IMG/VR virus record: IMGVR_UViG_3300032283_000551
Span: 13,042 to 77,041 of that record
Origin: a virus
Taxonomy: Duplodnaviria > Caudoviricetes
Reading direction: 5' to 3' (one strand)
Length of the DNA: 64,000 nt
A model generated the notes under the pieces. That model was not told the origin of the DNA. It was given only the letters and a program-made list of their open reading frames with translations, and searched no databases. The position numbers were made by a program, and so were the translations under genes. Shown in pieces: positions 6,316 to 51,535 of this stretch; the stretch's first letter is position 1, and every line of letters begins with the position of its first letter.

Positions 6316-7092
6316 ATGCTTAAACTCTCAAACTTAATTCAGACGACTGGCGCGATAACAGACGCAGCTGCACCGTCGCAGTTTGCAATGCATGCATTGA
6401 ATAGAGATTCTGAAGGTCTTCTTACATATACTAAAGTTCTCTGGGCTAATACCAGTGAAACAGTGGATATGACGAATGGTGATGGATTGGCATATAATGG
6501 TATTGAGGAATTTATTTCTGGCGTTAGTATTGGTAATACAGATTTCAATCTAACACGGGAATACGATTCTCAATCTGGCACTGGTGATTTACTAGCTAAC
6601 ACCTTTATAGTTAGATTTGTAACATCCGAAAGTAATTCTGCAATCAGAATTAACGGTGATACAGCTAACAATCCAGTACTTGAAATGTATAGAGGTTCCA
6701 CCTATAAATTTACAACAGATGATCCATCAACTTTGAATCATCCTATTTTTATTTCGACCACACCAAGTAGTGGTTCATATACAAATGAATATCTCAAAGG
6801 TGTGCAGTATTCTAGATCAGCATATGATGGCAACGGTTATATAACTGTAAATGCAAATGTTGCCACTTCAGATGCTTTGATTATTAATGTCCCAATGGAT
6901 GCACCAGATCAACTGTATTATGCTTCAGGACAAGATGCTAATTGCTATGGTATTCTGAAAATCACATCTGAATTAACGAATACAAAATATAGAAAATATG
7001 AACAAGTTAGATTTGATAATCTTCAACTATCATACTATATAAATAGCAATGGCTTCTTGGTAGCAAGATATGGTGCAGATTACTCATATTAA
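6316..7092 (+). CDS. Structural protein, hypothetical
   Basis: LNRDSEGLLTYTKV and LEMYRGSTYKF...HPIFIST...APDQLYY modules; position in structural module. Confidence 0.55.
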   Translation: MLKLSNLIQTTGAITDAAAPSQFAMHALNRDSEGLLTYTKVLWANTSETVDMTNGDGLAYNGIEEFISGVSIGNTDFNLTREYDSQSGTGDLLANTFIVRFVTSESNSAIRINGDTANNPVLEMYRGSTYKFTTDDPSTLNHPIFISTTPSSGSYTNEYLKGVQYSRSAYDGNGYITVNANVATSDALIINVPMDAPDQLYYASGQDANCYGILKITSELTNTKYRKYEQVRFDNLQLSYYINSNGFLVARYGADYSY

Positions 7093-48568: not shown

Positions 48569-48653
48569 GCGGGCTTGGTGAAATGGTAGACACAAGAGAC
48601 TTAAAATCTCTCGGCTAAAAGCTGTACCGGTTCGAGTCCGGTAGCCCGCACCA
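48569..48653 (+). tRNA. tRNA-Leu(TAA)
   Basis: Cloverleaf, AGAGA-CTTAAAA-TCTCT, variable arm, CCA. Confidence 0.95.
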
Positions 48654-48696
48654 ACTACCTAAGATTAAAAATTACTAAATGTTAATACTTTTTTGG

Positions 48697-48725
48697 TTGA
48701 CAGACATTCAAATCTATGGTATAAT
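48697..48725 (+). promoter_or_regulatory. Early promoter for the tRNA array
   Basis: TTTTGG-TTGACA-N17-TATAAT. Confidence 0.85.
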
Positions 48726-48744
48726 CCACATATAAACAAATTGA

Positions 48745-48819
48745 GGATCCTTAGTTCAGCGGTAGAACACCGGACTTTTAATCCGTATGCCCTGGGTTCA
48801 AATCCCAGAGGATCCTCCA
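48745..48819 (+). tRNA. tRNA-Lys(TTT)
   Basis: Loop CTTTTAA, T-arm CTGGG-TTCAAAT-CCCAG, U73, CCA. Confidence 0.9.
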
Positions 48820-48852
48820 TTTGTTTGACCTTTATTATGAAAGATATATATT

Positions 48853-49032
48853 ATGTCGGAAGATTATAGGATTCAATTTTTGGATAATTCAGGTTGGCGT
48901 ACTTGTGTTACCTTTACTTCCCGAGCCGATGGTGCTATGGTAATGAGGGAAATGCAACAAGCCCAGGTGTATTATCCGGAATACCGAATTCGATGTGTTG
49001 ACCACAATGATCGACTGATTGATATGCTATAA
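48853..49032 (+). CDS. Small hypothetical protein (59 aa) inside the tRNA array
   Basis: MSEDYRIQFLDNSGWRT...RCVDHNDRLIDML; fills the spacer exactly. Confidence 0.55.
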   Translation: MSEDYRIQFLDNSGWRTCVTFTSRADGAMVMREMQQAQVYYPEYRIRCVDHNDRLIDML

Positions 49033-49035
49033 ATA
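49028..49035 (+). promoter_or_regulatory. Late promoter in tRNA array
   Basis: TATAAATA 7 nt before tRNA-Trp. Confidence 0.7.
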
Positions 49036-49042
49036 AGTCTGT

Positions 49043-49116
49043 GTCGGTGAAGTGTTATGGTAGCACGTAAGTCTCCAAAACTTGAGGCGAGGGTTCGACT
49101 CCTTCCACCGATGCCA
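49043..49116 (+). tRNA. tRNA-Trp(CCA)
   Basis: Loop CTCCAAA, G73, CCA. Confidence 0.95.
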
Positions 49117-49125
49117 ATAAGTTTA

Positions 49126-49203
49126 GGGCCAGTCTTCTAATTGGACTAGGAATCCAGATTTTCAATCTGTTCAATGCGGGTTCGAGTCCCGTCTGGCCTA
49201 CCA
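49126..49203 (+). tRNA. tRNA-Glu(TTC)
   Basis: Loop TTTTCAA, T-arm GCGGG-TTCGAGT-CCCGT, CCA. Confidence 0.9.
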
Positions 49204-49231
49204 AGTTTTCTGTTGTTTGACAATTTGAATG

Positions 49232-49239
49232 TATAAATA
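49232..49239 (+). promoter_or_regulatory. Late promoter consensus in tRNA array
   Basis: TATAAATA, but only 1 nt before tRNA-Lys(CTT), so it may serve the downstream tRNAs. Confidence 0.5.
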
Positions 49240-49240
49240 A

Positions 49241-49312
49241 GAACGGGTAGCTCAGAGGAAGAGCGGATGCCTCTTAAGCATCGGGTCGAGATTTCGAAAT
49301 TCTCCCTGTTCA
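49241..49312 (+). tRNA. tRNA-Lys(CTT), CCA not encoded
   Basis: GATGC-CTCTTAA-GCATC; acceptor GAACGGG/CCTGTTC. Confidence 0.85.
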
Positions 49313-49317
49313 TATTT

Positions 49318-49392
49318 GGATCCTTGGTCGAGTGGCTTAGGCAGAGGTCTGCAAAACCTTTTACAGTGGTTCAATTCCACTAGGATCCTCCA
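49318..49392 (+). tRNA. tRNA-Cys(GCA)
   Basis: Loop CTGCAAA, U73, CCA. Confidence 0.95.
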
Positions 49393-49398
49393 GAGTTT

Positions 49399-49473
49399 TG
49401 GTTAGTAGCTCAATGGTAGAGCAGGTGACTGTTAATCACCCGGTTACAGGTTCGAGTCCTGTCTAGCCAGCCA
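49399..49473 (+). tRNA. tRNA-Asn(GTT)
   Basis: GGTGA-CTGTTAA-TCACC, G73, CCA. Confidence 0.95.
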
Positions 49474-49596
49474 GGTCGCACAAAAACTGTTCCTATCCGG
49501 TTTTGTGCATTTTGTAGATAGGATACGCTCTTACTGTCTGGGGGTAAGAGAAGAGATAAACTTGCTATTGAAATCAATGGTGGGTTAGCCCAGACC
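49474..49596 (+). ncRNA. Candidate structured RNA with two pseudoknots
   Basis: GCACAAAA/TTTTGTGC with loop TCCTATC pairing GATAGGA; CTCTTAC/GTAAGAG with loop GTCTGGG pairing CCCAGAC. Confidence 0.6.
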
Positions 49597-49602
49597 AAAT
49601 TT

Positions 49603-49678
49603 GCTTCCTTAGCTCAGCTGGTAGAGCATTCGGTTGATAACCGAAAGGTCGATGGGTCGGGACCATCAGGAAGCACCA
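49603..49678 (+). tRNA. tRNA-Ile(GAT) with atypical T-loop
   Basis: TTCGG-TTGATAA-CCGAA; T-loop GTCGGGA; CCA. Confidence 0.85.
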
Positions 49679-49683
49679 AGTTT

Positions 49684-49758
49684 GCCGGATTAGCACAGCG
49701 GTAGTGCAATCGCCTTGTAAGCGATAGGTCGGGAGTTCAATCCTCTCATCCGGCACCA
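49684..49758 (+). tRNA. tRNA-Thr(TGT)
   Basis: ATCGC-CTTGTAA-GCGAT, CCA. Confidence 0.95.
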
Positions 49759-49764
49759 TATTTT

Positions 49765-49854
49765 GGACGTGACATCGGGTGATGACAAGGGCCTTATATT
49801 CCCTTTGCAGCTGATTACTGCTTGGATAGGATTCGAATTCCTACACGTCTACCA
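49765..49854 (+). tRNA. Non-canonical tRNA-like RNA (possible TAT anticodon, or tmRNA-TLD-like)
   Basis: Acceptor GGACGTG/CACGTCT-A-CCA, T-arm TAGGA-TTCGAAT-TCCTA, mini D-arm CATC-GGGT-GATG, AAGGG/CCCTT arm, extra GCAG/CTGC arm. Confidence 0.6.
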
Positions 49855-49857
49855 AAC

Positions 49858-49954
49858 TCAAAGACTACCAGGATTAAATGGGCTCTCCTGGTTCAAGATG
49901 ACTGCTAGTAAAACTGATAACCCCACCCATGGTTTGCAGGGCTCTGGTCTTTGA
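49858..49954 (+). ncRNA. Candidate structured RNA after the tRNA-like element
   Basis: Closing stem TCAAAGACT/GGTCTTTGA, hairpin ACCAGGA/TCCTGGT, possible ATGGG/CCCAT loop-loop pairing. Confidence 0.55.
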
Positions 49955-49962
49955 TACTTTTT

Positions 49963-50036
49963 GCGGGATTAGTATAATGGTATTATCACAGCCTTCCAAG
50001 CTGAGGACAGGGGTTCGATTCCCCTATCCCGCTCCA
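49963..50036 (+). tRNA. tRNA-Gly(TCC)
   Basis: Loop CTTCCAA, U73, CCA. Confidence 0.95.
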
Positions 50037-50042
50037 TTATTA

Positions 50043-50168
50043 AGTGTTAGACATGCGTAATGACCTACGGCTGGTCATCCCGGGAAACTGGGTTGCATCT
50101 TTGATTTGGGAAGAATCCGGATTCGACCCAAAATATCAATGATGTGGGTTCGAATCCCGCTAACACTT
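50043..50168 (+). ncRNA. tRNA-like RNA without an anticodon loop
   Basis: Acceptor AGTGTTA/TAACACT, canonical T-arm GTGGG-TTCGAAT-CCCGC, branched 5' domain and long bulged arm. Confidence 0.7.
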
Positions 50169-50179
50169 AACATTATTAT

Positions 50180-50252
50180 AGCAGAGAGGATTGGTATCCC
50201 ATCTAGGCTCATAACCTAGACCACGGTTGTTCGATTCAACCCTCTGTTACCA
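50180..50252 (+). tRNA. tRNA(CAT), Met/fMet-like, non-canonical D-arm
   Basis: AGCAGAG/CTCTGTT-A-CCA; GGAT-TGGT-ATCC; 6-bp stem TCTAGG-CTCATAA-CCTAGA. Confidence 0.75.
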
Positions 50253-50256
50253 CTAT

Positions 50257-50325
50257 GGCGCTAGAACAGGTGTTCCGGTCGATCTCATAAGTCGACTTGT
50301 GTTGGATCGTTACCAACTAGCGCCT
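50257..50325 (+). tRNA. tRNA(CAT), non-canonical D- and T-arms, no CCA (Met or Ile2)
   Basis: GGCGCTA/TAGCGCC; GAAC-AGGT-GTTC; 6-bp stem GTCGAT-CTCATAA-GTCGAC; T-loop ATCGTTA. Confidence 0.6.
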
Positions 50326-50333
50326 TATAAATA
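50326..50333 (+). promoter_or_regulatory. Late promoter in tRNA array
   Basis: TATAAATA upstream of tRNA-Ser(TGA). Confidence 0.7.
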
Positions 50334-50345
50334 AGTTACTAATAT

Positions 50346-50436
50346 GGATAGGTGGCCGAGTGGTTGAAGGCTCTAGTCTTGAAAACTAGCGAGGGTTAAG
50401 AGCCCTCCGTGGGTTCGAATCCCACCCTATCCTCCA
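50346..50436 (+). tRNA. tRNA-Ser(TGA)
   Basis: CTAGT-CTTGAAA-ACTAG, long variable arm, CCA. Confidence 0.95.
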
Positions 50437-50444
50437 GTTTATTT

Positions 50445-50534
50445 GGAATGGTGGCCGAGTGGTTTAAGGCTGCGGTTTACTAAACCGCCGAGGGTTTATC
50501 CCCTCCGTGGGTTCGAATCCCACCTATTCCTCCA
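50445..50534 (+). tRNA. tRNA-Ser(ACT)
   Basis: GCGGT-TTACTAA-ACCGC, long variable arm, scaffold near-identical to tRNA-Ser(TGA), CCA. Confidence 0.9.
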
Positions 50535-50557
50535 GTTTTATAAAAAGGATATAAAAC

Positions 50558-50722
50558 ATGTCTGGTTACTCTATTGATGTCTTTAAAAAAGCGGCATTTA
50601 ATCATGAACTAGATAATGTATTATCATCTGAAGAACTAAAACAAAAGTTAGGATCCAACCACACTATATTGGTTTCCTATCTTAAAGAACGTGTTAAAGA
50701 GATAGATAAACAATACAGTTAA
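50558..50722 (+). CDS. Small hypothetical protein (54 aa) inside the tRNA array
   Basis: AAGGA RBS; MSGYSIDVFKKAAFNHELD... Confidence 0.6.
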   Translation: MSGYSIDVFKKAAFNHELDNVLSSEELKQKLGSNHTILVSYLKERVKEIDKQYS

Positions 50723-50799
50723 CAGGGAATAGCTCAATCTGGTAGAGCGCTGCGTTTGGGACGCAAAGGTTGCAGGTTCGATTCCTGTTTCCCTGACCA
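50723..50799 (+). tRNA. tRNA-Pro(TGG)
   Basis: Loop TTTGGGA, C1-G72, A73, CCA. Confidence 0.95.
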
Positions 50800-50803
50800 T
50801 TTT

Positions 50804-50879
50804 GGGAGGTTAGCTCAGTTGGTAGAGCGTCACGTTTACACCGTGAATGTCATCGGTTCAAACCCGGTACCTCCTACCA
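50804..50879 (+). tRNA. tRNA-Val(TAC)
   Basis: TCACG-TTTACAC-CGTGA, CCA. Confidence 0.95.
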
Positions 50880-50886
50880 TTTTTAT

Positions 50887-50960
50887 TGCCTGATAGTTTA
50901 ACGGTAGAACGCCGGTTTTTGGTGCCGGCTGTGTTGGTTCAAATCCAGCTCGGGCATCCA
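50887..50960 (+). tRNA. tRNA-Gln(TTG)
   Basis: CCGGT-TTTTGGT-GCCGG, U1-A72, CCA. Confidence 0.92.
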
Positions 50961-50965
50961 TTTTA

Positions 50966-51041
50966 GCCACCTTGGTATAGCTGGTGCGTACATACGCCTG
51001 AAGAGCGTGGGGACTCTGTTCAATTCAGAGAGGTGGCACCA
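50966..51041 (+). tRNA. tRNA-Phe(GAA)
   Basis: TACGC-CTGAAGA-GCGTG, CCA. Confidence 0.92.
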
Positions 51042-51045
51042 TTTT

Positions 51046-51122
51046 GTTGCATTAGCTCAACTGGATAGAGCATCAGCCTACGAAGCTGAGGGTTAGGAGT
51101 TCAACTCTCTTATGCAACACCA
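51046..51122 (+). tRNA. tRNA-Arg(ACG)
   Basis: TCAGC-CTACGAA-GCTGA, CCA. Confidence 0.95.
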
Positions 51123-51127
51123 TTTAC

Positions 51128-51201
51128 GCGCGTGTGACGGAATTGGCATACGTACTGGTCTTAGAAACCAGGTTTTGGGGGTTCAAGTCCCTCCATGCGC
51201 A
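51128..51201 (+). tRNA. tRNA-Leu(TAG), short variable region, no CCA
   Basis: CTGGT-CTTAGAA-ACCAG; only GTTTT before the T-arm. Confidence 0.85.
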
Positions 51202-51208
51202 TTATTAC

Positions 51209-51284
51209 GGTGGTAGTAGCTCAAAGGCAGAGCGTTGGTTTGTGGAGCCAAATGTTGCGGTTTCAAGATCCGTCTATCACCCCA
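51209..51284 (+). tRNA. tRNA-His(GTG) with G-1:C73
   Basis: Loop TTGTGGA; G-GTGGTAG/CTATCAC-C-CCA. Confidence 0.9.
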
Positions 51285-51286
51285 AT

Positions 51287-51361
51287 GGGCTTCTAGTGCT
51301 AGCGGTAACACGTCGCCTTTGCACGGCGAAATTCGGGGTTCGACTCCCCGGAGGTCCACCA
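51287..51361 (+). tRNA. tRNA-Ala(TGC)
   Basis: G3.U70, loop TTTGCAC, CCA. Confidence 0.95.
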
Positions 51362-51366
51362 TTTTT

Positions 51367-51455
51367 GGGAGAGCTGCTCGGACGGCGGACGGGCACTGGT
51401 CTGTAAAACCAGCACTTAAGAAACGGAGTTGGTTCGAATCCATCCTCTCCCACCA
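51367..51455 (+). tRNA. tRNA-Tyr(GTA)
   Basis: CTGGT-CTGTAAA-ACCAG, variable arm, CCA. Confidence 0.92.
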
Positions 51456-51461
51456 CTTCAC

Positions 51462-51535
51462 GGCCGTATAGTTTAATGGTAGAACGTTTGCCTGTCTAGC
51501 AACTCGCCGGGGTTCGATTCCCCGTATGGTCGCCA
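51462..51535 (+). tRNA. tRNA-Asp(GTC)
   Basis: Loop CTGTCTA, G73, CCA. Confidence 0.92.

Follow-up and report, generated by a model that had tools for sequence, protein, structure and literature searches.

The window analysed here, a stretch of 64,000 nucleotides, is part of a 77-kb T4-like phage contig (GC 36%) in which genes for the sliding clamp, the clamp loader, RegA and the gp43 polymerase flank a tRNA region, with the tRNA array lying between the regA/clamp-loader genes and the gp43 DNA polymerase gene. ARAGORN finds 23 tRNAs in the array and Rfam 21. The canonical genes, 23 in number, serve 19 amino acids, mostly with one U34 tRNA per codon box, and the only absentees from this set are Met and a reader of AUA, a codon used 14.1 times per 1000 codons over the whole contig. 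The same array holds three compact tRNA-like genes with the anticodons UAU, CAU and CAU (cand1, cand2 and cand3), which would be of just the kinds needed, and the question is whether they are the missing tRNAs and what their unusual shape could mean. With them the set is complete at 26 tRNAs, and the spacers between them and adjoining tRNAs are 4-7 nt, like those of a polycistronic tRNA array. We regard them as real, conserved tRNAs of a non-canonical compact design that are probably functional.

A canonical tRNA has two connector bases (8 and 9), a D loop of 7-11 nt and a 5-bp anticodon stem. The three genes keep the canonical 7-bp acceptor, 5-bp T stem and 7-nt T loop, and on direct reading their anticodon loops are canonical as well (7 nt, C32 U33 ... 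A37); the core departs from the canonical one in all three respects, with a connector of 1 or 0 base between acceptor and D stems, a D loop reduced to a 4-nt tetraloop that retains the GG, and an anticodon stem of 6 bp (Table 1). The first-pass annotation had described a shared 4-bp D stem with an NGGU tetraloop and a 6-bp anticodon stem, and the letters match this exactly, coordinates included. The single connecting A that it described for cand1 and cand2 is present there; in cand3 the A, which it noted as able to pair, is paired (A7-U66, a G-C pair in the homologue L285), so that there is no connector base. The two-nucleotide linker between D and anticodon stems is found in all three, but in cand3 its C and G pair with variable-loop bases according to RNAalifold on eight homologues, and because of these two pairs the anticodon helix of cand3 reaches 8 pairs, with a bulge. 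With an anticodon stem closed by a C.U mismatch, an A53-U61 pair and a linker that cannot pair, cand1 is a weaker member of its type, and its three copies (window, L001 and L003) are all identical, hence no variation reveals selection on this allele. CCA is encoded in cand1 and cand2 and not in cand3, whose U73 is unusual for Met; genes of the cand3 type with CCA occur in L006, L011 and L290.

Table 1. Positions of the tRNA array, the three compact genes and their parts (window coordinates), and of compact genes in cultured-phage records.
Feature	Position	Strand	Structure or letters	Basis
tRNA array	48569..51535	+		ARAGORN, Rfam
cand1, type A, compact tRNA-Ile(UAU)	49765..49854	+	GGACGTG / A / CATC-GGGT-GATG / AC / AAGGGC-CTTATAT-TCCCTT / 21-nt variable arm / TAGGA-TTCGAAT-TCCTA / CACGTCT / A-CCA	sequence; ARAGORN -ps80; model R1, 72.2 bits
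cand1 acceptor	49765-71/49844-50	+	G1.U72	sequence
cand1 connector	49772	+	A	sequence
cand1 D hairpin	49773-84	+	GGGT loop	sequence
cand1 linker	49785-86	+	AC	sequence
cand1 anticodon arm	49787-49805	+	anticodon TAT 49795-97	sequence
cand1 variable arm	49806-26	+		sequence
cand1 variable-arm hairpin	49807..49821	+	GCAG / CTGATTA / CTGC; GAU (49813-15)	relatives, covariation
cand1 T arm	49827-43	+		sequence
cand1 3' end	49851-54	+	A73 + CCA	sequence
cand2, type B, compact initiator-like tRNA(CAU)	50180..50252	+	AGCAGAG / A / GGAT-TGGT-ATCC / CA / TCTAGG-CTCATAA-CCTAGA / CCAC / T arm / CTCTGTT / A-CCA; A1-U72	ARAGORN default; homologues
cand2 connector	50187	+	A	sequence
cand2 D hairpin	50188-99	+	TGGT loop	sequence
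cand2 linker	50200-01	+	CA	sequence
cand2 anticodon arm	50202-20	+	anticodon CAT 50210-12	
cand2 variable loop		+	CCAC	
cand2 T arm	50225-41	+		
cand2 3' end		+	A73 + CCA	
cand3, type C, compact tRNA(CAU)	50257..50325	+	GGCGCTA / GAAC-AGGT-GTTC / CG / GTCGAT-CTCATAA-GTCGAC / TTGT / GTTGG-ATCGTTA-CCAAC / TAGCGCC / T; 7-bp acceptor without connector	ARAGORN -mt; homologues; RNAalifold
cand3 D hairpin	50264-75	+	AGGT loop	
cand3 linker	50276-77	+	CG	
cand3 anticodon arm	50278-96	+	anticodon CAT 50286-88	
cand3 variable loop		+	TTGT	
cand3 T arm	50301-17	+	T loop ATCGTTA	
cand3 3' end		+	U73	
DAC15 (L373)	MT074136.1, about 6383-6455			
S-SRM01 (L280)	MW015081.1, 32944-			
S-SKS1 (L282)	HQ633071.1, about 178520-178610			

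That standard tools would score such genes low or miss them had been foreseen, and it was borne out. By default ARAGORN finds one of the three (cand2, with the anticodon at position 31), while cand1 needs -ps80 to appear and cand3 needs the mitochondrial mode, each with the same coordinates as in Table 1. The Rfam model RF00005 (gathering threshold 29 bits) finds none of them in 701 bases, even with E<=10 allowed, and gives the 21 neighbouring array tRNAs 50-72 bits; weak Rfam matches nearby to tmRNA_permuted, mir-301 and LOOT were rejected as noise. Minimum free energy folding of single sequences yields a cloverleaf for cand1 and cand2 and another fold for cand3, for which RNAalifold on the eight homologues gives a cloverleaf with the added pairs 20:43 and 21:42. 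Model R1, by which cand1 was scored, was made from 42 other type A members.

Conservation was judged from 160 related loci (1.83 Mb) for which the polymerase and clamp loader, and not tRNAs, served as anchors. In a strict scan of these, a match had to have an acceptor of 7 bp, a connector of 0-1 nt and a D stem of 4 bp with an NGGN loop, followed by 2 nt, an anticodon stem of 6 bp with a U33 loop, and a T arm of 5 bp. There were 14 matches, 12 of them distinct and every one CAU or UAU, against 0.3-3 in shuffles, and in the same protein-anchored loci 12 of the 28 distinct CAU/UAU tRNAs are compact against none of 315 others (Fisher p = 7e-15), where the shuffle and Fisher figures both overstate independence because many of the sequences are related. 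The link to the AUN box proposed from the three genes is thus strong among the related loci, but it does not extend to all arrays, since other phage arrays include compact tRNAs for Ala, Arg and His.

The compact genes form three lineages. Type A is an Ile(UAU) tRNA that has G1.U72, A73 and a long arm. In type B the CAU anticodon goes with an AGCAGRG acceptor whose 1:72 pair is weak or mismatched, and in type C with a GGCGCYA acceptor, no connector and U73. Viral contigs were searched for type A with a pattern whose sole fixed parts were the TGGT loop, the loops of the anticodon and T arms and the 3' end, and more than 120 places were found, with 74 distinct well-formed genes. Types B and C were counted separately for covariation. 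The filters demanded pairing and so inflate the proportion of paired cells, which is 99.5% in type A (42 genes of equal length), 97% in type B (five distinct homologues) and 100% in type C (eight distinct homologues). The variety of pair types is unaffected by this, and both-sided changes are seen in 25 of 27 pairs, in 10 pairs and in 7 pairs, respectively. None of 500 shuffles of type A reaches the observed pairing, slid registers come nowhere near it, and the covarying pairs include three of the four in the D stem and all six in the anticodon stem. Among 19 compact CAU cores the D stem has seven different sequences and covariation is seen at every anticodon-stem pair, as it is at the sixth, outermost pair among relatives generally, and T loops switch from T54/A58 to A54/T58 with both bases changing together. 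In type C the pair 20:43 is always C-G and 21:42 is GC, AU, GU or UA, with a one-base bulge before them. Judged by eye, linker/variable-loop pairs are possible in seven of nine independent compact CAU lineages; in type A the linker can pair with the CU 3' of the extra hairpin (89% pairable, with no double change), and in type B such pairing is not possible.

The helices have accordingly been kept through compensatory changes in relatives, which bears out the earlier suggestion of a structure conserved without sequence identity. A lack of compensatory D-stem changes in homologues had been named beforehand as the sign of a mistaken structure, and D-stem double changes are in fact present. This also bears on the idea that the three are decaying pseudogenes of ordinary tRNAs, for which one could point to the absence of cand2 from the nearest relatives (L001 and L003), the mismatch and A53-U61 of cand1 and the CCA that cand3 has lost relative to L290. 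With helices that are 97-100% paired over homologues with many double changes, and a short D arm kept in more than 100 distinct sequences, we regard decay as highly improbable. The class to which cand1-3 belong is real and selected, and not a result of chance or decay.

The layout had been likened to that of mammalian mitochondrial tRNA-Ser(UCN), a "type I" mt-tRNA whose compact-core features, like those of tRNA-Pyl, are defined in PMC7609411. The likeness covers the lone connector base, the small size of the D loop, the 6 bp of the anticodon stem and the G18G19/T-loop motif, which is retained there as well as in the phage tRNAs, but it stops at the variable region, where the mitochondrial tRNA has 3 nt, cand2 and cand3 have 4 nt and cand1 has an arm of 21 nt; the crAss-like DAC15 does have 3 nt. 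The phage tRNAs differ further in having a D loop of only 4 nt and a D stem set off from the anticodon stem by two bases, and in anticodons, host and origin, with no sign of common descent. In tRNA-Pyl (M. barkeri, D. hafniense and M. alvus) the connector is likewise of 0-1 base, the D loop of 4-5 nt and the anticodon stem of 6 bp, and the M. alvus form, without connector and with a 4-nt D loop, is in this respect like cand3. However, tRNA-Pyl is without G18G19 and the T-loop motif and has a 3-nt variable loop, a CUA anticodon and a dedicated synthetase, whereas the phage compact tRNAs keep GG and TTCGA and have CAU or UAU. Our default assumption, given the different anticodons and hosts, is that the likeness to both systems is a matter of convergence.

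For cand1 there is partial prior art in the allo-tRNA(UAU), which is abundant in Acidobacteria and has five-stem-junction folds (Mukai 2017, PMC5389517). Both have UAU, a long variable arm, a tetraloop D stem and a longer anticodon stem, but the acceptor/T branch that defines allo-tRNAs is 8/4 or 9/3, with G73/U73 for Ser identity, and cand1 and its relatives have 7/5 and A73. The combination of long arm and tetraloop D arm concerns cand1 only, as cand2 and cand3 have no long arm. An 8/4 reading of the cand1 relatives was ruled out, as the eighth pair would be A.G in Terriglobia copies and the 7/5 branch covaries; the latter shows 100% pairing in type A, with covariation in both helices.

The variable arm of cand1 displays in its 7-nt loop GAU, the anticodon of the major tRNA-Ile. 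A central GAT is found in all 74 distinct type A relatives, although the retrieval pattern left it unspecified, and the arm as a whole is a 4-5-bp stem, of which all five pairs covary, with a 7-nt loop (consensus CAGATTA), usually followed by 5 nt. Forms of Ile(UAU) with a normal D arm also bear the GAU arm. Some acidobacterial (Terriglobia) copies have in the loop GAC, a Val anticodon, in place of GAU. Decoding by this loop is unlikely as it has neither U33 nor purine 37, and no intramolecular partner for it was found by eye in the anticodon loop or the T loop. In the text of Mukai 2017 that was consulted (PMC5389517) the GAU loop goes unmentioned. The IleRS of E. coli is ~360-fold poorer on UAU than on LAU (lysidine-AU) (PMC3575796), and this weakness makes a GAU on an arm of anticodon-arm reach an attractive, if putative, explanation: the loop may provide the IleRS determinant that is missing from the UAU anticodon. 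The Mycoplasma mobile tRNA-Ile(UAU) reads AUA without a modified C, as cand1 would, but it is an ordinary class I tRNA whose IleRS has an Arg accepting U34 (PMC3575796), unlike cand1 with its compact core and GAU-displaying extra arm. Charging by LeuRS, SerRS or TyrRS via the long arm, in analogy with the nematode nev-tRNA, was considered and is unlikely. A73 speaks against Ser, Tyr requires the anticodon GUA, which cand1 does not have, and the Leu D-loop elements are absent as well.

The compact genes were first taken for a phage tRNA class, and they do occur in many phages, but the UAU type is also present in Ruegeria and Acidobacteriota genomes. Type A adjoins tRNA-Arg(UCU) in Ruegeria chromosomes and is found in other Alphaproteobacteria too; cand1-type genes occur in Terriglobia genomes, and a 21-gene tRNA array on a 1.09-Mb acidobacterial contig (L297:1571-4396) includes a compact Ile(UAU). 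Short-query searches retrieved compact tRNAs from the cultured phages DAC15 (crAss-like, Bacteroides), cr85_1, S-SKS1 and S-SRM01 (both Synechococcus) and Phosso (Sinorhizobium), and in the records of DAC15, S-SRM01 and S-SKS1 these compact tRNA(CAU) or tRNA-Ile(UAU) genes are unannotated (Table 1). A blastn search of the 1.1-kb region against cultured phages returned only ordinary Ser/Thr tRNAs, and the compact CAU tRNA of the L348 type had no match among cultured phages. A literature search, which was not exhaustive, gave no description of phage compact-D-arm CAU tRNAs or of the GAU loop. In one array (L225:4600-11076) the 5' half is short in six tRNAs, Ala (G3.U70), Ile-UAU, Met, Arg-CCU, Glu and Arg-ACG, so the compact design can spread through much of a tRNA set; the array also holds a tRNA with a CUA anticodon, and a compact His occurs in another phage array. 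Three close relatives of this phage (L289, L286 and L291) have an Ile(UAU) with a normal D arm in the slot of cand1. An odd type of Met tRNA, in which the connector is a single base, the D loop has 9 nt and base 26 is missing from between the D stem and the anticodon stem, was seen at L033:402-476, L077:1513-1587 and L294:3667-3741, and often adjoins type B.

As to function, there is a good likelihood that the three are working phage tRNAs, where cand1 would read AUA as Ile, cand2 would be an initiator-like CAU tRNA and cand3 a second CAU tRNA, most likely an elongator Met. Types B and C share with canonical tRNA-fMet and tRNA-Met the CUCAUAA anticodon loop and the 7/5 branch, and cand2 and cand3 differ from them in D arm, connectors and anticodon-stem length. 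Type B may further resemble tRNA-fMet in its weak 1:72 and its R11:Y24, with C1xA72 in relatives, but just two of the pairs at the base of its anticodon stem are G:C, and these CAU tRNAs are below the Rfam threshold. The three G:C pairs of bacterial initiators are absent both from cand2 (A-U, G-C, G-C) and from cand3, where the series ends in U.G. The 1:72 pair is A-U in cand2, AxC in L295 and CxA in the crAss-like cr85_1, where the gene is annotated as tRNA-Met; crAss-like relatives of type B end in C1xA72 or U1-A72, and the compact CAU tRNAs of jumbo phages combine C1xA72 with GGG/CCC. We read type B as initiator-like because of this weak or mismatched pair and because it recurs beside a second CAU tRNA (window, L006, L290 and L294).

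Type C lies near an Ile(UAU) gene in most loci (window, L001, L003, L285 and L289), where a second AUA reader would be redundant, and it is on this ground that we read it as elongator Met. The CAU anticodon of cand3, and its G1-C72 pair, which is not that of an initiator, would also suit a tRNA-Ile2 that is lysidinylated by the host TilS and reads AUA, not Met, and L006 and L011 have type C without a UAU tRNA within the stretch covered. We nevertheless consider this identity unlikely, as it would leave the phage with a superfluous AUA reader and without Met. The determinants of E. coli TilS are C4:G69 and C5:G68, and they are half present in cand3, which has G4:C69 and C5:G68.

It could also be argued that the three do not decode at all and are look-alikes that serve as toxin or enzyme decoys or as processing signals. 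They score below every standard tRNA model, a clearly non-tRNA, tRNA-shaped RNA is present in the same array at 50037-50179, and six acidobacterial allo-tRNA(UAU) were inactive as Ser suppressors in E. coli (Mukai 2017, PMC5389517), although that assay saw Ser insertion only. Their canonical anticodon loops, with an anticodon that is invariant per type, the initiator hallmarks in relatives, and the fact that exactly the gaps of an otherwise complete set are filled make this very unlikely in our opinion.

Other elements of the array deserve a description of their own. The RNA at 50037-50179 is very stable (z = -5.2), with an 11-bp terminal stem, a canonical T arm and a branched core without anticodon loop; relative to L290 it forms an insertion, with ATTAT repeats on its flanks, that separates tRNA-Gly from cand2. 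It could be a mobile element of tRNA-like form or correspond to the stable RNAs found in the tRNA cluster of T4. The spacer element of 108 nt that lies between cand1 and tRNA-Gly (49855-49962) is near-identical in L001 and missing in L003 and L289, where the flanking tRNAs are closer, and its fold is no better than that of shuffles (z = -0.6). A tRNA-Ser with the rare anticodon ACU (50445-50534), kept in L003:726-815, is a near copy of the adjoining tRNA-Ser(UGA), and L001 has GCU in its stead. In L001 (4650-5500), a 99%-identical relative, about 0.75 kb with an ORF splits tRNA-Ser(UGA) just 3' of the anticodon and looks like an intron with a homing-endonuclease-like gene.

Why working tRNAs should have such a core is a question of the origin of the shape. 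One explanation, compatible with their being working tRNAs and to us possible but doubtful, is that it is an escape, making the phage's own Met and Ile tRNAs poor substrates for tRNA nucleases, toxins and modification enzymes of the host (or of phages) and leaving them usable in translation. The shape recurs in unrelated phages (T4-like, crAss-like, jumbo and cyanophage) and in several tRNA lineages, and normal and compact versions swap in one slot, which suggests repeated selection. On the other hand, the UAU type also resides in bacterial chromosomes, and VapC and AtaT/ItaT, the toxins named in the first-pass annotation, have their targets in the anticodon loop or at the aminoacyl end, neither of which is altered in cand1-3; we know of no nuclease or toxin that recognises Met or Ile tRNAs by their D loop. 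No observation points specifically to escape from these toxins or to a decoy role.

Structurally, the compact core could still make sense for translation. The GG would still dock on the T loop, and the extra pairs of the anticodon helix would take the place of stacking layers that went with the D loop, so that the distance from anticodon to elbow, and hence the L shape, would be preserved. An anticodon helix of 6-8 pairs would lie directly under the 4-bp D hairpin with the GG within reach of the T loop, a logic as in mt-tRNA-Ser(UCN) and tRNA-Pyl. Such a design would be tolerated mainly where the synthetase reads the anticodon or acceptor and not the D arm, as with MetRS, IleRS and, for the compact Ala, AlaRS, and this would account for an AUN bias that is strong, not absolute. 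Going further, we hypothesize, with considerable reservation, that the core is a repeatedly evolved, orthogonalised chassis, hidden from D-arm-reading enzymes and defences of the host and still charged by anticodon-reading synthetases, to which, in the AUA reader, a GAU decoy arm would be added that recruits host IleRS to a UAU tRNA which this enzyme would otherwise refuse. It is conceivable, at the same low confidence, that this minimal core would have the GG elbow contact only, with the layers of the D loop swapped for anticodon-helix pairs.

Compact genes are missed or under-called by default tools, and the tRNA sets of phages therefore falsely appear to be without Met or AUA readers. A tRNA-Pyl-like core with Met and Ile identities on bacterial machinery would test what translation needs of a tRNA core, and could offer engineered tRNAs a new chassis. 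Should charging be served by the shape or the GAU arm, or should either of them help in escape from defence, this would be a new layer of the conflict between phage and host over tRNA.
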